Virus record (IMG/VR): IMGVR_UViG_3300022468_000286
Direction: 5' to 3' (one strand)
Origin: a virus
Lineage: Duplodnaviria; Heunggongvirae; Uroviricota; Caudoviricetes
Length of the DNA stretch: 64,000 bases
In this document: positions 1,496 to 36,618 of the stretch, piece by piece
Numbering within the stretch: position 1 is the stretch's first letter
Layout of the letters: each line of letters starts with the position of its first letter
Program-made: the position numbers and the translations under genes
The notes under the pieces: model-generated
Databases searched by the model: none
What the model was told of the DNA's origin: nothing
The model's input: the letters and a program-made list of their open reading frames with translations, nothing else

Positions 1496-1903
1496 ATGGA
1501 AATATTGAATACAAAGAAAGCGACAGAGAGGTTGCTACTAAGCATCACCCCTTCAGTTCCTACTGGATTTGAAGGTGTGGATTTTGACCCCCCTGTTGAT
1601 GCTCTATACCAGAGGTGCCAGTTCAGGATTGACCCTCCAACTGATCCAGTGTTCCCAGCAGGATACCACAGAGAGAACATGCAGATGCAAGTTTTTATCG
1701 CTGGAATCAAGGGACAAGGTACAGGGGAAGTGATTGCAAGAGCAGAACTTCTACGCCAAACATTCTACAAAGGTTTGACTCTCATTGAGGGGACAACCAG
1801 AATCCATATACTTGAAACTGCACAGATTGGCTCAGTATTTACTGCTCAAGATCGGGTGGTTTTACCTGTGCTTATCTCACTAACCGCAGAAGTATATCAG
1901 TGA
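1496..1903 (+). CDS. Tail terminator / tail completion protein (putative)
   Basis: 135 aa, the last small ORF before the major tail gene. Assignment is by position only. Confidence 0.2.
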   Translation: MEILNTKKATERLLLSITPSVPTGFEGVDFDPPVDALYQRCQFRIDPPTDPVFPAGYHRENMQMQVFIAGIKGQGTGEVIARAELLRQTFYKGLTLIEGTTRIHILETAQIGSVFTAQDRVVLPVLISLTAEVYQ

Positions 1904-1924
1904 CAGTGAACCTGATTCACTTTT

Positions 1925-1946
1925 AGCCTTCGGGCTTGTTTTATTT
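1925..1946 (+). terminator. Intrinsic terminator/attenuator (agcc-UUCG-ggct + T-run)
   Basis: Hairpin with UUCG loop followed by tgttttatttg. Confidence 0.45.
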
Positions 1947-1973
1947 GCAAATAAACAAATTAAGGAAATATAA

Positions 1974-3185
1974 ATGCCAATCGCAAAAGGTGTAAGTAAA
2001 AAAGTTGCTTACAAAAAAGAATCTACATGGGGTACACTAGCTGGCACAACTGGTTCGAAGTACCTGCGTCGTGTTACTGCTAACTTTAACCTGACAAAAG
2101 AAACATATGAGTCTGCTGAAATCCGTACAGATTACCAAGTCGCTGATATGCGTCACGGTGTACGGAGTTCGGAAGGTTCTCTGAACGGTGAACTGTCGCC
2201 TAATACTTATTCGGATTTCATGCAATCTGTGCTGGCCCGTAACTTTACAGCCGGTGGAACAGTTGCTGGTGCTTCGATTACGATTGCAGTATCTGGTCAA
2301 TTCTTCACAGTGACTCGTGCTGCAGGTAGCTGGATTACTGACGGTTTCTATGTCGGTAACGTTGTTCGTCTGACCGGCGCCGGTTTTAACGCAGCTAATA
2401 CTGGCAATAACTTGCTGGTTGTAGCTATTACTGCTCTGGCACTGACCGTTCGTGTACTATCTGCAACTCCAATGGTTGCTGAAGGTCCTATTGCTTCTGC
2501 TGGTGCTTCAGTTGTTGGTAAGCAAACATTTGCTCCACTGACTGGTCACACTGATGACTCATACACTATTGAAGAATGGTATAGCGATATCGCTCAATCA
2601 GAAGTATACACTGGTATGAAGGTCGGTACAATGTCTGTGCAGCTTCCAGCTACAGGACTTGTTACTTGTGATTTCAGCTTCATGGGTAAGAACCTTGAGC
2701 AGAAAGGCACTGCACAGTATTTCACGACTCCTACTGCTGCAGGTACTAATGGTATCTTTGCCGCTGTATCTGGCGCTCTTGTGGTGAATGATGCTCCAGT
2801 TGCTTTGATTACCTCTCTGGACTTCAGTGTAGAGCGCGGTCTTGAAGCTGCTAACGTAGTGGGTTCTAACTTTGCTGCTGACGTATTTACTGGTCGTATT
2901 CGTGCTACTGGTAACTTCAGTACTTACTTCCAAGACGGTACATTCCGTGATTACTTCGATACCGAAGCAACGATCAGCCTTGTGGTTGCTCTGTCTACCG
3001 GTTCGGAAAAGAACGCTGATGTTATCTCGTTCACATTCCCTAAAATCAAGGTTGGCTCTGCAACAAAAGCTGACTCAGAAATGGGTATTGTCCAAGAACA
3101 CAGCTTCACGGCTCTGCTGAATAGCGTAGCTGGAACTGGTCTGGTAGAATCTACCATCATGGTGCAAGACACCGCAGTAGTGTAA
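1974..3185 (+). CDS. Major tail (tube) protein
   Basis: 403 aa, Ala/Gly/Thr/Val-rich beta-type protein. It lies immediately upstream of the chaperone pair and tape measure gene (canonical V-G-GT-H order). It is preceded by an RBS and followed by a terminator. Confidence 0.5.
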   Translation: MPIAKGVSKKVAYKKESTWGTLAGTTGSKYLRRVTANFNLTKETYESAEIRTDYQVADMRHGVRSSEGSLNGELSPNTYSDFMQSVLARNFTAGGTVAGASITIAVSGQFFTVTRAAGSWITDGFYVGNVVRLTGAGFNAANTGNNLLVVAITALALTVRVLSATPMVAEGPIASAGASVVGKQTFAPLTGHTDDSYTIEEWYSDIAQSEVYTGMKVGTMSVQLPATGLVTCDFSFMGKNLEQKGTAQYFTTPTAAGTNGIFAAVSGALVVNDAPVALITSLDFSVERGLEAANVVGSNFAADVFTGRIRATGNFSTYFQDGTFRDYFDTEATISLVVALSTGSEKNADVISFTFPKIKVGSATKADSEMGIVQEHSFTALLNSVAGTGLVESTIMVQDTAVV

Positions 3186-3198
3186 ACTATTGAATTAA

Positions 3199-3232
3199 CC
3201 CCCTTGGAGAAATCCTTGGGGGTTTTCTTTTG
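3199..3232 (+). terminator. Putative intrinsic terminator (ccccc...ggggg + T-run)
   Basis: GC stem with gggggttttcttttg after the major tail gene. Confidence 0.4.
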
Positions 3233-3242
3233 TCGATTTAAC

Positions 3243-3273
3243 TTGATTATACAACATCCGTGTGGTATAATTG
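3243..3273 (+). promoter_or_regulatory. Sigma70-like promoter TTGATT-N17-TATAAT
   Basis: ttgattatacaacatccgtgtggtataat directly read upstream of the chaperone gene. Confidence 0.45.
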
Positions 3274-3322
3274 AGACTTAGATGGAATAAAATCCAAATT
3301 ATTAACCTGAGAAAGGAAAACT

Positions 3323-3727
3323 ATGCTAGACCTTAAAGTAACAAATCTTGCAGAATCTGCCGAAGCTGGCTACGAATTTGAACTCCTACTGCCCGAGTCT
3401 ATGGAAAAGACCGGGGGCTTTATTAAAGTGCGTGGCCGTATGTCCGCACCTGTACGTAATCACGCAAAGCGTAAGTACACAGAATACACCCAACGTGAAA
3501 TGCAAGCCAAGCGTAAGGGTAAAGAACTTGAAGCGATGACCATTGATGAAGCTGAAGACGCTGCAGTAGAAAACGCAATCGTGCGTATTATTAGCTGGCG
3601 TGGTATCGGTAAGGATGGCGTTGAGATTCCTTTCAATAAGGAAAATGCTGATACAGTCCTGCGCGAACATACTTGGATTCGTGACGCAGTGATGGAGGAA
3701 TCAGATAATCTGCTGAACTTTCAATGA
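3323..3727 (+). CDS. Tail assembly chaperone (gpG-like)
   Basis: 134 aa acidic protein immediately upstream of the tape measure gene. The downstream frame is open and overlaps the end of this ORF. Confidence 0.5.
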   Translation: MLDLKVTNLAESAEAGYEFELLLPESMEKTGGFIKVRGRMSAPVRNHAKRKYTEYTQREMQAKRKGKELEAMTIDEAEDAAVENAIVRIISWRGIGKDGVEIPFNKENADTVLREHTWIRDAVMEESDNLLNFQ

Positions 3728-4109
3728 TGAAGACCTTGACGATGCATTAGCTTTTGCTCGTCAAGAGTTTGAATTAGCTGAGAGACAGCAAGATGGCAAA
3801 TCCCTTAGAGAGCATTTACAAGCAGTTGTAAAGCAAGGGATTATGCCTAAGGAGTTAGAAAATCTAGTTAAACTACCAGACAGCCTTTCGCATGTTTGGT
3901 ACTGGTTTCTGGATTTACATAATACTCGGTCTTCTGGTTTTGGTGCTTCCCCTATTACTTACTGCGAAATACAAGCGTACTTTAGTTTACTTGAACTCCA
4001 AGTTGAACCTTGGGAAGTAGACTTAATAAAGCGATTTGACAGAATTGCCCTTGAGGTAACTGCCGAACAGCAAGAGAAGACGGAAAAGAAAAATAAAAGA
4101 AGTAAGTAA
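3717..4109 (+). CDS. Tail assembly chaperone extension (gpT-like). Probably expressed as a frameshift fusion with 3323..3727; the stand-alone ATG is at 3843.
   Basis: The +1 frame is open from 3717 (42 codons) with no ATG, GTG or TTG before 3843. It overlaps the last 3 sense codons plus the stop codon of the upstream chaperone ORF. Confidence 0.4.
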   Translation, partial: TFNDEDLDDALAFARQEFELAERQQDGKSLREHLQAVVKQGIMPKELENLVKLPDSLSHVWYWFLDLHNTRSSGFGASPITYCEIQAYFSLLELQVEPWEVDLIKRFDRIALEVTAEQQEKTEKKNKRSK

Positions 4110-4113
4110 TATT

Positions 4114-4135
4114 AGGCCCTTCGGGGCCTATTTTC
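4114..4135 (+). terminator. Intrinsic terminator (aggccc-UUCG-gggcct + T-run)
   Basis: Perfect 6-bp GC stem with UUCG loop followed by attttct. Confidence 0.55.
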
Positions 4136-4186
4136 TATGTGGCTTACTGAATAGGCTATATAGCAAATAATAAAGAAGGAAATGAA

Positions 4187-7100
4187 ATGCTTAATCTAAG
4201 CGAATTAGCTTTTACAGTTCGGACTGAAGCCCTTGTAGATGCGGCTAATAAAGTAGCGGCTCTTGGGGAGTCCGTAGAGAACCTTGCAGGTTCATTCCAG
4301 AAACTAGAAAAGGCATCTTCAGATGCTGAGAAAACACAATCGCGAAATGCTAAGGCTGCAGCACAAGCTGTAGAAGCTCAAGCTAAGCCAAATAAGGCTC
4401 TAAGTGAAGCTGAATCTGCTGCGCTTAAAACAACCTCTGAACGTACTGATGCTGAAACTAAGAAGGTTAAAGCTCTAAAGGCAACGACACAAGCTGTAGA
4501 TGAAAGTACAGAAAGCGCCAAGAAGAGTTTAAGTATCCTTGAGCGCCAACAAACCATTCTAGAATTCCAAGCTAATGGTTACTCTAAAGGGCAATCCTCA
4601 ATTCTTGCATATGCTAAAGCTGCCGGTGTAGCTTCGGATGAAATTCAAGAAATCGGCAGAGTTCTACAAGCACAGAGAACTCTCATGGGAGGTGATCCGT
4701 TTGATAAAAGTCTAGGAAGCCTTCGCTCACTCCAGAACGAATTTAAATCTCTGAAAGAAGTACAACGTCTTTACACTGCAGAAATACCTTTAACTAGAAA
4801 GCAGATGGAAAATCTGGCTCTCGATAAGATTCGCCTTATCGAAGCTATGAAGATCGAGGGCAAGTCGATGACTGACATTAAAAACGCCATCCGTCAACTT
4901 AATGTAGAGTATATCACAACTGCCGGTAGTATTAATAAAATGATTCAAGCTGAGAACGCAATTGATGCTGCTCATAAAGATGCAGCTAAAGCGGCCTCGT
5001 ACCTTGAACGTGAAATGCAACGTGTAAACTTTGCCCTTCAAGAACAGAACAATGAACTGAACAAAGGTACTGCTAATGCTCTTAATCGTTTTGAACAAAA
5101 CCTGAAGCGTAGTGGACTTACCCTTGATCAGCAAAGAGTAAAGATGGATGAATATCGCAAATCTTTACTTGCTCTGGAAAAGACTAAAGGCGGTGGGAAT
5201 ACGGATTATATTAGTCGTGCCCTTGGTCCACAGATTACTGATATTTTCGTTGGTCTTGCTACAGGACAAAGCCCGTTGACAGTTATGCTTCAACAAGGTG
5301 GTCAACTGCGAGATCAGTTTGCTCTTGCTGGTGTTGCTGCTGCTGATATGGGTGCTACCATGCGTACTGCTGCTAGGGAGATGGTAACATCTGTAGCCGC
5401 TGTTGCTGGTGCCTTTAAGGATTTAATTGTAGGCGCCTTCATTGATACAGGCAAGGGTCTTGTGAACATGGTTGTTCAGTTTACAGGGCTGGCTAATGTA
5501 ATTGAAAAGGCAAGATATCAATTAACTCTGTTTGCAATGTCAGACCCATCTTTTGGTAAACCCCTGCTCGCTTTCTTTGCTGCACTTCGTGTGGCTGTGA
5601 TTGGTTTTGCAGCTACTATGGCCGCTACAGGTATTGGGGCGCTTATAGCTATGGCGGTTGCTATCAAGCAAGTTATCTCTGAAAATAATACTCTAGCGCG
5701 CTCTCTAGCTCTGTCTGGTGGAAGTCTAGCATTAACTCATAGTTCTGCTGTGCAGTTTGTAGAGACACTTTCAAGCATGGGAGTTACAACTGGCGTTGCT
5801 ACTGAAGCTCTGGCTGCAATGGCTAAGGCTGGCGGTTTCACAAGAGATGAAATTCTTATGGTAGGCAAGGCCGCTGCCGAGATGTCTACATATGCTGGCG
5901 TTTCGGTAGAAGATACAGTTAAAGCCTTTGATAAGCTCAAAGATAAGCCTGTAGAAGCCCTTATAGATATTGCCAAATCAACTGGTATGGTTTCTATTGA
6001 AACTATTAAGATGGTTGCTGAATTGCAAAAGGCAGGAAAGACGACAGAAGCTGCTGCGCTGGCTATGAAGACATATGCGGACGTTACTAAAACTCAAGTA
6101 CAGCAAATGAAGGATAACTATAATGGTTTTTCTTTGTTCATGATTAACTTGGGCAAGGGAATTAAGAACTTCTTCTCTGAGACTTTCAAAGTTCTTTTCT
6201 TAGCTAGTGATCCAACTAAGGAACTAGAAAAGCAACTTAGGAATACTCAAACACTGATTAACCAGTATAAAGGCGCTGCCACTTATACCCCTGAGGGTGC
6301 CACTGGAAGACAGGTAAAAATACTGGAAGAGCGTGCTAGAATGATCTCCAGCGAAATTAGCTCACAAGTGAGGCTGAATACTGAAAAAGAGAAACAACTT
6401 CAGCAGCAATCAGAAGAGGCCAAAAACTTTGGAATCGTTTCTGATGTTATGAAAGGTGTTAGCGGCGTGCTTGATAAGCAAATCGAGAAGACTCTTTCAC
6501 TGACAGATTACACTAAAAAGTACATCGCAGAGAAAACAAAAGAAGGCAAGTTCTCAAAAGAACAGCTTGCTAATATTGAAAAAGCCGCAAAGATTGAATG
6601 GGAAGGTCTGCAAAAGAAATCAAGCAATAAAGCTGATCCTCAAGAGAAGTATTTCGAGAGCCTAATGCGTAGTCTAACAAATGAAACAATCAAGGCTACA
6701 ACAGAACAGGACAAGTTAACCAAAGCATATACCAAGATGCTTGAATTAGCTGCCGACCCTCGATTCCAGAAACTTTCTGAACAAGAGAAAGCTAAAGCAT
6801 TTGACCTGCTAAACCAAGCTCATAACGCTGAACTAGCAACTGCTGCTACTGAACGTCAGACCGCAGCCGAAGAACTTAGGAATAAAGTTCTAGGTAAGGC
6901 AGAAGGACTTGGGAAGGAATATTACGATACTCTTGCGAAGATTCAACAGTACAATAAAGACGGTGTGTACTCTGATTCAGAAGTTATTCAACTGACTGAA
7001 GCATTATATAGAGCCACTCCTGCCTATAAAGCAAATATCAAAGCTGTTGAAGAGCTTAACGGCCTTCTTTTGAAATACAAAGAAGCAGCTATGGCAAGCT

Positions 7101-10069
7101 CACAAAGCATTGAGCAAGATAATGCTGCACTTGATCTTAGAATGCAAGTTCTAGGGCAAACAGAGTCTCAACAAGTTGCAATAACTCGTGAGTATGATCG
7201 TCAAGCTAAACTGTCTAGAGTTAATCTTGACCTTGAACTTAAGCGTCTTCAGATCGCTAAAGATTTTGCAGATAATCCAGTTAAACGCTGGGAACTTGAA
7301 GAACAAGCTGAACGTGAAGCTGCAGAGAAACGCAAAGTCATTAATCGTGAAGTTGCTGTTGCGTATGCAGAAGACATGCAGAAGGAATTCGACAGAATTC
7401 GTAACGGAATTACTGACAGTATTGTTACTGCTTTGTTTGAAGGCGGTAAAGCTGGCTCTAAGAAATTGCGTGATTTGGTTGTCGGCGCATTACGTCAGAA
7501 AGTCACCATCGTTGTAGATGCAGTGGTTAATACCTTGCTCGGCAATGTCATCGGTAGCCTTCTTGGCGGTGGTGGAGGCGGCATCGGTGGCGCAGTTGGC
7601 GGAGGTGCTGGCGGTCTAATTAATGCTGGCATGCAAGGCTACAGCCTTTACAGCGGTTTAACAAGCGGCACAGGTATTCTTGGTCGTATCGGTGGGATGA
7701 TTGGACTTGGCGCTTCAGCAGGTACTACTACAACAATTGGTGTAGGAACAAGCCTTGCTAACCCCGGAATGGCTGCAGCAATTAACCCACTAGCCGGTGC
7801 AGGCGCGGGCGCTGGGGGTGGGCTAGGTGCACTGGCTACAGCAGCTCCTTACATTCTCGCCATCGTCGCTATTGCTGCAAGTTGGAAGAAACTCTTTGGT
7901 CGTGAGTTGAAAGACTCTGGTATTCAAGGTCAATTTGGTGGTAAAGAAGGTTTCCAAGGTCAAGCTTATAGATTCTATAAGGGCGGTCTGTTCCGTTCCG
8001 ATAAGACTGAACTGAGTCCAATCGACAAAGCACTTCAGAAACAACTTGGTGACGCATTCACTGCAATGAAGACTCAAGTTACGGATTTTGCTAAGGTGCT
8101 GGGTCTTAATGCTGATAAGCTGAAGAACTTCACGTCAGATATTAAGATTAGTCTTCACGGCATGAACGAGAACGACATTTCTTCAAAGATTCAGGAAGCT
8201 CTGGCTACTGTGAATAATGAAATGGCGCAGGAGATTCTGGGTGAATGGGAAGATAAGACAAGAACTGAACGTAGAGTTGTAGCAGGTACAGGCTCGGGAA
8301 GCTCCGGAAGAGGTGCTGACGATTTTGATTCAAATCCAGCACAATTCGAGGATGTAACTGTAACTGATCGCGTCTATAAAGCAAGTAAGTACGCCAAGGA
8401 GGGTGAAAAAGCAATCGACACTCTAACTCGTCTTGCTACATCTCTTTCTGCAGTCAATCAAGTGTTTGACACACTTGGTGTTAAGCTGTACGAAAGTAGT
8501 CTTGCTGGCGGTGATTTAGCTAGTCAATTGGTTGATCTATTTGGTGGTATTGACAAGTTTGTTCAAAGCACGAACTTCTATTACCAAAACTTCTACTCTG
8601 CAACAGAACGTCAAGCTACGGCTCAACGTCAACTAGAAGCAGAATTTAAGAAGAATGGACTGACACTTCCTAAGACTCGTGAAGAGTACCGTAAGCTTGT
8701 GGAATCACAAGACTTGAGTACAGAAAAGGGTCGGAAGATGTATGCACTGCTGATGCAACTTGCACCAGTATTCGCTGAGATTTCTCAGAGTGCAGAAGAC
8801 ATTGCTGCTGCTGCGAAGGATAAACTTCGTGATGCATTGGAAAGTGCTTACAGTGCTTTAGAGAAAGCTGTGAATGCTCAGAAAGAACTTCTGCAGCAAC
8901 AAGCTCAGACTGCTCAAGAGACTGTTAACCGCTTGAAGGGTATTTTTGACATGCTTTCGAAGAATGTCAGAGAACTCTACATGCAAGTGGATAGTACTGC
9001 AAAGATGCTTGCAAGTCAAGGCCGAGCAGTTATTCAGCAAGCTCTATCTTCAGGTGTACTGCCAGATCAGAAACTACTGGAAGATTCTATCGGTGCTGTC
9101 CGTTCAGATATTGAAAGCACTCAATATGCTACTCAGTTTGAACAAGACAAAGCTAGATTAGAACTTGCTGCTGAACTGCAGATTCTACAAGAACAGGCTG
9201 GTGCACAACTAAGCACTGCTGAACTAATTCTGAAGGGTATCAAGGATCAAATCGAATATCTGGATGGTCTATTAAAGACTGCCAGAGAACAGATTGATGC
9301 TGCTCTTGGAATTACCAACGCTGTGATTAGTGTCGAACAAGCTCTCAAAGACCTAGCAGATATTCTTAAGCCCGCTGCTCCAGATACTGGAACTGTAGGT
9401 AAAGGAAATAATGCAGTCGCAGGTAAGCCTGTGTTTGGTCCTACCGGCCCCGGCCCTAGTGGCCCTGCTCCCAAAGAGTTGAAGCCCGGTGAAAAGACGG
9501 CAGACGGCAAGTACGTGGTCGAAGCTTATCTTGGAAGTTACGGTACAGTTGTCCGTAGTGCTACTGACGAAGAACAATCTAGACTTGCAGCCAAAGAGGA
9601 TGCTTACCGTCAAGCTTGGGCCGTTGGTACAGAATCTGGTGATTTGGCTTCGTTCTTTATTATGGCTCGTGACAGTGGTATTTCTCTACTGGAGCTATCT
9701 GCTCTTGCAGGTTATTACTATGAAGATATGTACAAGGCTGCTACCTCTGTGGGTGTTCAGCGATTCGCTACAGGCGGCGCATTCACTAATGGAATTGTAC
9801 AACGTCCTACTAACTTCAATATGGGTCAGATGGGTGAAGCTGGACCTGAAGCTATTCTTCCGTTGACAAACGTAGGAGGTCGCTTAGGTGTTCACGCTGT
9901 AGGTTCTGGATCAGAAACTGAAGAGAGTTCTGTTCTTTCACGTAGAGTTGACAATATGAGTATTGAACTGCAAGCAATTGCTATAAATACTTCTAAGGTC
10001 GCTAGACTGCTGGAACGTGTAACACGCGACGGTGAATCACTCATTGTCAAAGATGCTGCAACAGTTTAA
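4187..10069 (+). CDS. Tail tape measure protein
   Basis: 1960 aa, with long alpha-helical coiled-coil stretches. There are hydrophobic segments around aa 480-510 and a Gly-rich segment (LLGGGGGGIGGAVGGGAGG) around aa 1125-1220. A conserved C-terminal motif (FATGGAFTNG...GEAGPEAILPL) is present. Position after the chaperone pair fits. Confidence 0.9.
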   Translation: MLNLSELAFTVRTEALVDAANKVAALGESVENLAGSFQKLEKASSDAEKTQSRNAKAAAQAVEAQAKPNKALSEAESAALKTTSERTDAETKKVKALKATTQAVDESTESAKKSLSILERQQTILEFQANGYSKGQSSILAYAKAAGVASDEIQEIGRVLQAQRTLMGGDPFDKSLGSLRSLQNEFKSLKEVQRLYTAEIPLTRKQMENLALDKIRLIEAMKIEGKSMTDIKNAIRQLNVEYITTAGSINKMIQAENAIDAAHKDAAKAASYLEREMQRVNFALQEQNNELNKGTANALNRFEQNLKRSGLTLDQQRVKMDEYRKSLLALEKTKGGGNTDYISRALGPQITDIFVGLATGQSPLTVMLQQGGQLRDQFALAGVAAADMGATMRTAAREMVTSVAAVAGAFKDLIVGAFIDTGKGLVNMVVQFTGLANVIEKARYQLTLFAMSDPSFGKPLLAFFAALRVAVIGFAATMAATGIGALIAMAVAIKQVISENNTLARSLALSGGSLALTHSSAVQFVETLSSMGVTTGVATEALAAMAKAGGFTRDEILMVGKAAAEMSTYAGVSVEDTVKAFDKLKDKPVEALIDIAKSTGMVSIETIKMVAELQKAGKTTEAAALAMKTYADVTKTQVQQMKDNYNGFSLFMINLGKGIKNFFSETFKVLFLASDPTKELEKQLRNTQTLINQYKGAATYTPEGATGRQVKILEERARMISSEISSQVRLNTEKEKQLQQQSEEAKNFGIVSDVMKGVSGVLDKQIEKTLSLTDYTKKYIAEKTKEGKFSKEQLANIEKAAKIEWEGLQKKSSNKADPQEKYFESLMRSLTNETIKATTEQDKLTKAYTKMLELAADPRFQKLSEQEKAKAFDLLNQAHNAELATAATERQTAAEELRNKVLGKAEGLGKEYYDTLAKIQQYNKDGVYSDSEVIQLTEALYRATPAYKANIKAVEELNGLLLKYKEAAMASSQSIEQDNAALDLRMQVLGQTESQQVAITREYDRQAKLSRVNLDLELKRLQIAKDFADNPVKRWELEEQAEREAAEKRKVINREVAVAYAEDMQKEFDRIRNGITDSIVTALFEGGKAGSKKLRDLVVGALRQKVTIVVDAVVNTLLGNVIGSLLGGGGGGIGGAVGGGAGGLINAGMQGYSLYSGLTSGTGILGRIGGMIGLGASAGTTTTIGVGTSLANPGMAAAINPLAGAGAGAGGGLGALATAAPYILAIVAIAASWKKLFGRELKDSGIQGQFGGKEGFQGQAYRFYKGGLFRSDKTELSPIDKALQKQLGDAFTAMKTQVTDFAKVLGLNADKLKNFTSDIKISLHGMNENDISSKIQEALATVNNEMAQEILGEWEDKTRTERRVVAGTGSGSSGRGADDFDSNPAQFEDVTVTDRVYKASKYAKEGEKAIDTLTRLATSLSAVNQVFDTLGVKLYESSLAGGDLASQLVDLFGGIDKFVQSTNFYYQNFYSATERQATAQRQLEAEFKKNGLTLPKTREEYRKLVESQDLSTEKGRKMYALLMQLAPVFAEISQSAEDIAAAAKDKLRDALESAYSALEKAVNAQKELLQQQAQTAQETVNRLKGIFDMLSKNVRELYMQVDSTAKMLASQGRAVIQQALSSGVLPDQKLLEDSIGAVRSDIESTQYATQFEQDKARLELAAELQILQEQAGAQLSTAELILKGIKDQIEYLDGLLKTAREQIDAALGITNAVISVEQALKDLADILKPAAPDTGTVGKGNNAVAGKPVFGPTGPGPSGPAPKELKPGEKTADGKYVVEAYLGSYGTVVRSATDEEQSRLAAKEDAYRQAWAVGTESGDLASFFIMARDSGISLLELSALAGYYYEDMYKAATSVGVQRFATGGAFTNGIVQRPTNFNMGQMGEAGPEAILPLTNVGGRLGVHAVGSGSETEESSVLSRRVDNMSIELQAIAINTSKVARLLERVTRDGESLIVKDAATV

Positions 10070-29239: not shown

Positions 29240-29315
29240 TGGCGCGTCTGGAGGGATTCGAACCCCCGACAAGTGATGTAGAAGATCACGGCTCTATCCA
29301 CTGAGCTACAGACGC
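29240..29315 (-). tRNA. tRNA-Arg (anticodon UCU)
   Basis: 76-nt cloverleaf read by hand. It has the acceptor stem GCGTCTG/CAGACGC, D-stem GCTC/GAGC, anticodon loop CU-UCU-AC, T-loop GGTTCGAATCC, discriminator G and an encoded CCA. Confidence 0.8.
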
Positions 29316-36531: not shown

Positions 36532-36618
36532 TGGTGCAACAGGTGAGATTCGAACTCACGGTGGGATTTCTCCACTGGCTTATGAGGCCAGAGCCTGCAA
36601 CCGCACGGCGTCTGTTGC
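36532..36618 (-). tRNA. Type II (long variable arm) tRNA with anticodon CAU and discriminator A
   Basis: 87 nt read by hand. It has the acceptor GCAACAG/CTGTTGC, a 3-bp D-stem, anticodon stem CTGGC/GCCAG with loop CU-CAU-AA, a ~15-nt variable arm, T-arm GTGAG-TTCGAAT-CTCAC and an encoded ACCA. Position 8 is A. Confidence 0.6.

Follow-up and report, generated by a model that had tools for sequence, protein, structure and literature searches.

A probable programmed +1 ribosomal frameshift at a conserved AAC_UUU_Y site joining the two tail assembly chaperone frames of a Caudoviricetes phage

The virus record IMGVR_UViG_3300022468_000286 of IMG/VR (Duplodnaviria; Heunggongvirae; Uroviricota; Caudoviricetes) was analysed here as one stretch of 64,000 nucleotides (nt), hereafter the window, in which two overlapping open reading frames (ORFs) on the plus strand at positions 3323 to 4109 resemble the G and T frames of the tail assembly chaperone genes of phage lambda. 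Based on the frame layout, the profile matches and the comparison with homologous loci, we propose that a programmed +1 ribosomal frameshift at AAC_UUU_C very probably yields a G-T fusion protein from these two frames. The elements on which this proposal relies are as follows; lengths of proteins are given in amino acids (aa), and Y denotes C or T.

3323..3727, plus strand: G-type tail assembly chaperone ORF (ORF1), 134 aa, 15.3 kDa, matching phrog_313 'tail assembly chaperone' with E=3e-14
3714..3716, plus strand: TGA that closes the +1 frame on its 5′ side and so limits how far upstream the shift can occur, according to the sequence and frame analysis
3716..3722, plus strand: proposed shift site AAC_UUU_C, whose TTT precedes a pyrimidine in each of the 65 distinct +1 homologues and is the only TTT_Y in ORF1
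3723..4109, plus strand: T segment, 128 codons and a TAA, the part that ribosomes would read in +1 once they have shifted, matching PF23812 Phage_TAC_18 with E=1.8e-19 and phrog_4966
3725..3730, plus strand: tandem zero-frame stops TGA TGA ending G in the sequence, the second in-frame TGA being 3728-3730
3843..3845, plus strand: first ATG in the T frame, which would give a stand-alone product of 88 aa and 10.4 kDa

Results

Two overlapping frames of a tail assembly chaperone pair

The 3′ end of ORF1 reads ...GAT AAT CTG CTG AAC TTT CAA TGA, with the TGA at 3725-3727, and the +1 frame is open from 3717 to the TAA at 4107-4109 (130 codons), its first ATG, GTG or TTG being the ATG at 3843, which leaves 42 sense codons without an initiator. 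The layout described in an earlier sequence-only reading of this DNA, comprising the last codons of G, the open +1 frame, the start-free run and its overlap with the 3′ end of the upstream gene, was thereby borne out, and the overlap of the two frames is just 11 nt long. At the end of G, the -1 frame closes after 13 codons. Taken alone, the start-free run of 42 codons is unremarkable, as 14.6% of the in-frame 42-codon windows in the genes of this phage have no start-type codon. The open +1 frame of 130 codons is longer than all of the 834 +1-frame open runs inside the 51 long ORFs of the window (mean 16.7, maximum 127). The tandem TGA TGA at the end of G is also found in several relatives (loci L008, L014-17 and L068).

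The pair sits between the tail tube gene and the tape measure gene, which is the gene order of the lambda type, and an AAGGA ribosome-binding site precedes G at 3313-3317. Both frames belong to recognised tail assembly chaperone families, namely PF23812 for T, phrog_313 for G and phrog_8233 for both. Within the 271-position profile phrog_8233, positions 8-129 match ORF1 and positions 136-258 match the +1 frame, with the residues of the start-free segment included; therefore, fused relatives exist in annotated phages. G found no match in Pfam or NCBIfam, and the fusion no relative in PDB.

The same +1 layout in homologous loci

A megablast of positions 1900-4300 against GenBank phages returned no match, and tblastn with the hypothetical fusion matched 106 phage records. 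Two IMG/VR scans added 120 loci, the best 80 of 162 IMG/VR relatives being used, and upon removal of duplicates 72 distinct loci remained, of which 65 have a +1 and 7 a -1 context. The 65 +1 homologues show identities of 37-89% in G. A comparison with homologous chaperone pairs had been suggested together with the first description of the layout, and it returned the same +1 layout in all of these 65 distinct loci.

The nearest cultured relatives, Limnohabitans phage DC31 (50%) and Curvibacter phage P26059A (40%), are freshwater siphophages of Comamonadaceae. The IMG/VR contig 3300002461_000015 (89% G identity), DC31 (PQ492658) and P26059A (KY981271) share with the window the gene order, the +1 layout and an AAC_TTT_C site; these closest relatives differ from it in the codon after TTT, which is CGA (zero frame AAC TTT CGA in DC31 and P26059A) where the window has CAA. 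The T frame is unannotated in the GenBank record of DC31 (locus L001, 1909-2385), where no ATG occurs in its 131 codons, and is given only as a 75-aa stub in that of P26059A (locus L002, 2039-2266). The gpGT join is annotated in neither record, and neither of the two genome papers mentions a frameshift.

The seven -1 relatives carry classic slippery heptamers at or near the same place, namely A_AAT_TTT or A_AAT_TTC at the same Asn-Phe dicodon, or G_GGA_AAC one codon earlier (Pasteurella phage Pmp13). More distant relatives are also of the -1 type, as in Klebsiella phage K21lambda1 with T_TTT_TTC and in Acinetobacter phage DMU1, where the pair is annotated as a gpG/gpGT join. In a rough neighbour-joining tree without support values, the -1 locus L122/L030 (IMGVR_UViG_3300033072_000232, A_AAT_TTT) is nested in the +1 clade beside locus L035. 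As far as can be read from these sequences, frameshifting at this one Asn-Phe dicodon probably changed direction more than once.

An invariant TTT_Y at the end of G

In the window, just 11 nt of open +1 frame precede the end of G, and the shift must therefore fall within AAC TTT CAA. In most loci the +1 frame opens 11-17 nt before this stop, and TTT_Y is the only common shift-prone element in the permitted window. Among 61 distinct +1 contexts in which the flanking bases were counted, TTT precedes a C 59 times and a T twice, and the Asn codon before it is AAC 55 times and AAT 6 times. In the same loci TTT makes up only ~52% of Phe codons and AAC ~42% of Asn codons, and the third positions neighbouring the shift site carry 0.1-0.3 bits. 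With G identities down to 37%, synonymous sites should be saturated. Given the 52% usage of TTT, the naive probability of 30/30 TTT is ~1e-9, a value that overstates the independence of these related loci. At the end of G in the window, a canonical -1 heptamer X_XXY_YYZ is absent.

TTT_Y is also depleted in the genes of the phage itself. In the 51 long ORFs on both strands, 68/345 TTT codons (20%) are followed by a pyrimidine, vs 124/278 TTC codons (45%; Fisher p=2e-11). Such a depletion fits selection against accidental +1 slippage, which would arise if these codons are slippery for the host ribosome, and it could also be ordinary codon-pair bias.

A conserved start-free segment without conserved initiators

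The T-frame translations of the homologous loci align from the first post-shift codon onwards, with the pattern xx[DE][LIV]xxAxx[FY]AxQEFxL...DGxSLRxxL. The information content by +1-frame codon position in the start-free segment is 0.92 / 1.12 / 0.58, a coding signature. Judging from this pattern of conservation, the start-free segment is translated. An in-frame initiator in homologous phages had been named in the sequence-only reading as the observation that would count against a fusion; across the 72 distinct loci, the first start-type codon of the T frame is scattered anywhere from codon 3 to codon 111, is absent in L022/L093, and has no consistent Shine-Dalgarno partner, and the fusion is therefore not refuted on this count. 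The Met of the ATG at 3843 is common only to the 89%-identical loci L008/L048, and I, K, L, R or H stands at this position in the others. Therefore, the G/GT-type fusion suggested from the sequence is supported by the gene order, the domain and profile matches, the +1 layout with TTT_Y in 65 loci, the conserved start-free segment and the initiators that are not conserved.

Proposed mechanism and product

What we infer beyond these observations, namely that slippage takes place, how efficient it is and what G and GT do, can be put together as follows. The majority of ribosomes would read 3323..3727 and stop at the TGA, producing G of 134 aa, and a minority would shift by +1 with the peptidyl-transfer RNA (tRNA)-Phe on UUU (3719-3721) in the P site. 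Upon un-pairing, the GAA anticodon of this tRNA could re-pair with the overlapping UUC (3720-3722), such that the next codon would be AAU (3723) and reading would go on to 4109, with the junction ...LLNF|NDEDL... in the product. The predicted GT, 3323-3721 joined to 3723-4109, has 261 aa and 30.2 kDa, which corrects the earlier figure of ~27 kDa, and its predicted tryptic junction peptide is DAVMEESDNLLNFNDEDLDDALAFAR. The C before UUU in AAC_UUU would block -1 re-pairing because CUU does not match, and the slip would therefore go forward only, with its direction fixed as +1. If the two products act as they do in lambda, G would cover the tape measure protein, and bringing in the tube protein would fall to the rare GT.

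Alternative explanations

The layout could be explained without any frameshift, if T were made from the ATG at 3843 as a protein of 88 aa and the 42 upstream codons were an untranslated spacer. This ATG has an AAGGG 3 nt upstream, the Pfam domain match begins at residue 40 of the +1 frame, near the Met of 3843, such short ORFs have been called by GenBank annotators in Curvibacter phage P26059A and Pasteurella phage Pmp13, and start-free runs of this length arise by chance at the frequency given above. However, the 42 codons are conserved as protein with codon periodicity and align to the fused profile from position 136 on, the Met is shared with L008/L048 only, the first start codon of the other relatives is scattered or missing, and the invariant TTT_Y is left unexplained. 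We therefore hold a T made only from this ATG to be quite improbable, and initiation there could occur alongside the fusion, giving an additional product. Another way to reach the same frame would be a +1 shift one codon later, in which tRNA-Gln slips on CAA (3722-3724) with the TGA in the A site, as in prfB, giving the junction ...LLNFQ|DEDL... and the peptide DAVMEESDNLLNFQDEDLDDALAFAR. In its favour, TTT and the stop are separated by exactly one codon, both in the window and in roughly a third of the relatives. Yet re-pairing from CAA to AAU matches at 1/3 positions only, as judged from the anticodon, and most relatives have three codons from TTT to the stop, with a varied last codon (GAG, AAG or GCT); it is TTT_Y and not the codon before the stop that is conserved, and the Shine-Dalgarno-like motif does not lie 3 nt upstream, unlike in prfB. 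We rate this slippage on CAA as quite improbable; a stop-stimulated CAA_U shift may occur in the subclade of the window, but it is not a general mechanism.

The sequence-only reading had left the direction as +1 or -2, of which the +1 part stands and the -2 part does not. A -2 shift, as in gpGT of phage Mu, is formally equivalent to +1 in the frame reached, would add one extra amino acid and is documented for Mu (PMC5009743, PMC3498833), but given the TGA at 3714-3716 the only possible departure codons in the 11-nt overlap are AAC, TTT and CAA, whose landings TGA, ACT and TTC cannot pair with the departing tRNA, and a homopolymer run is absent; we rate it as very improbable. Extremely improbable, in our view, is an artefact or a decayed gene, in which a one-base sequencing or assembly error or a mutation would have split one chaperone gene, or RNA polymerase slippage would restore the frame. 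Single-base indels are common in assemblies and nothing specific points to one here, but the +1 layout is seen again in two cultured phages and in a set of 65 distinct sequences that stem from many independent metagenomes, and the T-run of only 3 nt is, by established knowledge, too short for transcriptional slippage. Two further candidates were rejected, namely a shift on AAC, on re-pairing grounds, and termination-reinitiation, as the ATGs near the stop (3724 and 3727) lie in the closed -1 frame and TTT_Y would again be unexplained.

Possible stimulators and points that weigh against the +1 shift on UUU_C

Two elements near the shift site were considered as stimulators.

3694..3699, plus strand: Shine-Dalgarno-like GGAGGA in the codons ATG GAG GAA, 19 nt upstream of the shift codon, a spacing that matches no known frameshift stimulator
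3731..3770, plus strand: stable hairpin 9-13 nt 3′ of the shift site, with the core stem CUUGACGA/UCGUCAAG at 3735-3765, a possible stimulator

The hairpin of the window has z = -3.3 vs dinucleotide shuffles and lies at the 2.8th percentile of the local 60-nt windows, and unusually stable downstream folds were found in 10/30 +1 loci. Around the site, Rfam returned only chance-level snoRNA matches. A Shine-Dalgarno-like 4-mer occurs at -30..-17 in 59/65 +1 loci vs 0/7 -1 loci, and the Glu codon at -24..-22 is GAG in 51/60, vs a GAG usage of ~24%. Stimulatory Shine-Dalgarno sequences are known to lie 3 nt from the site of +1 shifts and 9-14 nt from that of -1 shifts (PMC5009743).

Several observations weigh against programmed slippage on UUU_C, or take away support that it might have had. 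The homologous loci share phylogeny, and naive probabilities thus overstate their independence. The zero-frame A-site codon in the window is CAA, which is common (22.5 per 1000), and a hungry-codon effect is therefore not expected there; an A-site codon that is decoded slowly, helpful but not obligatory, is seen in relatives, of which 38/65 have CGN and 27/65 the rare CGA. RNAalifold on slip-anchored alignments found no consensus structure upstream or downstream and no covariation support, and of the 15 pairs in the hairpin of the window, only 4-11 are retained where relatives have the homologous positions. Because neither the pairs nor the position are kept, we claim no conserved stimulatory structure. 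The GAGGA motif was rejected as a prfB-like or dnaX-like stimulator, its distance being 19 nt vs 3 nt or 9-14 nt. Additionally, the ATG at 3843 with its weak AAGGG, separated by a gap of only 3 nt, could yield some free T.

A further-reaching idea, which we consider unlikely, is that the chaperone family carries a dedicated +1 cassette, composed of a C_UUU_Y core whose 5′ C blocks the backward slip and of GAGGA ~19 nt upstream, kept at a synonymous site against codon bias and acting as a long-range 5′ modulator, together with repeated switching between -1 and +1. If this were true, GAGGA would represent a long-range 5′ element, not described before, that modulates forward frameshifting, and the -1/+1 switching at one dicodon would be a natural system for studying what sets the direction of frameshifting.

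Gene neighbourhood

The chaperone frames are flanked by the following elements.

1974..3185, plus strand: tail tube (major tail) protein gene, the upstream neighbour, 403 aa; PF18906 Phage_tube_2 E=1.4e-40, phrog_290
3201..3222, plus strand: terminator-like hairpin and T-run after the tube gene, a pattern match from a consensus scan
3243..3271, plus strand: sigma-70-like promoter before the chaperone genes, TTGATT-17-TATAAT with a TG extension and 10/12 hexamer matches, the best site in 1900..4400 and a pattern match
4113..4130, plus strand: terminator-like hairpin and T-run between T and the tape measure gene, a pattern match from a consensus scan
4187..10069, plus strand: tape measure protein gene, the downstream neighbour, 1960 aa; PF06791 TMP_2 E=1.3e-26, phrog_25966 E=3e-102

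By these pattern matches, the chaperone genes resemble a transcription unit of their own, with a promoter-like site in front and terminator-like hairpins on either side. The tape measure protein is very long, with 1960 aa vs ~1584 aa in DC31, which has a tail of 203 nm, and ~1360 aa in P26059A, which has a tail of 153 nm; this comparison suggests that the tail of the phage is well over 200 nm. The phage carries two tRNA genes, tRNA-Arg(TCT) at 29240-29315 and tRNA-Met(CAT) at 36532-36618, both on the minus strand, and neither decodes the codons of the shift site.

Discussion

The two frames described here resemble the G/GT pair of lambda in that overlapping ORFs lie between the major tail and tape measure genes and the downstream ORF has no conserved initiator. 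In lambda, a small share of ribosomes change frame close to the 3′ end of G, such that the short G is abundant and the G-T fusion rare, and the same outcome is predicted here. The ratio of G to GT in lambda is ~30:1, and both proteins are needed for tail assembly. The two systems differ in the direction and the site of the shift, as lambda shifts by -1 on G_GGA_AAG, whereas the window would shift by +1 on UUU_C, a forward version that is rarer, and its -1 frame is closed. They also differ in the G part, which here belongs to no Pfam family, such that the kinship rests on the PHROG profiles, on PF23812 for T and on the gene order. The lambda pair and its counterparts in most long-tailed phages have been described (Levin 1993; Xu, Hendrix and Duda 2004) and reviewed (PMC5009743), and tailed phages use -1, -2 or +1 frameshifts for G/GT (PMC5009743).

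According to that review, the T frame is +1/-2 relative to G, as here, in phage Mu, which shifts by -2, and in the archaeal virus HSTV-2, for which the shift is described as 'very likely +1' (PMC5009743); therefore, the direction is not fixed across tailed phages. Mu and HSTV-2 are compared with the window here by direction, and the -2 re-pairing of the Mu type is impossible at the site of the window.

The +1 slippage of a P-site tRNA on UUU_Y has been described for Escherichia coli argI (Fu and Parker 1994), Yersinia YopN-TyeA, influenza A PA-X and related RNA viruses (PMC5009743, PMC3498833). Influenza PA-X uses UUU_C P-site slippage in UCC_UUU_CGU, and its authors predicted a wider UUU_C class with restricted A- and E-site codons (PMC3498833). 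The window has a zero-frame UUU followed by a pyrimidine in the overlap of the frames (3719-3722), that is, the same tetranucleotide on which tRNA-Phe could re-pair from UUU to UUC, with a low efficiency expected and a strong stimulator not obligatory. The UUU_CGN form of PA-X is also the form found in the 38 relatives with CGN. The window differs from the described members of this class in its gene context, in UUU_CAA with its common A-site codon, and in its E-site codon, which is AAC and not UCC.

The forward shifts of prfB, which encodes RF2, and of the tsh genes of the Listeria phages PSA, A118 and A500 (CUU_UGA, CCC_UGA) are likewise located near the end of the zero-frame ORF with a Shine-Dalgarno-like sequence upstream (PMC5009743). 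In these systems the shift codon is followed at once by the stop, which occupies the A site, and the Shine-Dalgarno sequence of prfB lies 3 nt upstream, whereas here one to three sense codons (CAA in the window) stand between UUU and the stop and the Shine-Dalgarno-like motif is 19 nt away; the arrangement of the prfB type is thus not present in the window.

In conclusion, forward frameshifts in tail chaperones and slippage on UUU_Y are both already established, and the understanding of tail assembly or of frameshifting is unchanged by this work. Three features appear to be undescribed in the searchable literature, namely the AAC_UUU_Y motif across the clade, the switches of direction at a single dicodon and the GAGGA associated with +1 loci. 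Gene callers miss or shorten the T frame in this phage clade, and the rule 'AAC_TTT_Y at end of G, +1' would allow annotators and frameshift predictors to recover GT in ~70 freshwater phage genomes and contigs. The proposed +1 shift on UUU_C would add a bacterial/phage case to the UUU_C(GN) class, of which influenza PA-X is a known member, and at the same two codons homologous chaperone genes would rely on a classic -1 heptamer in some phages and on a +1 UUU_Y tetramer in others.

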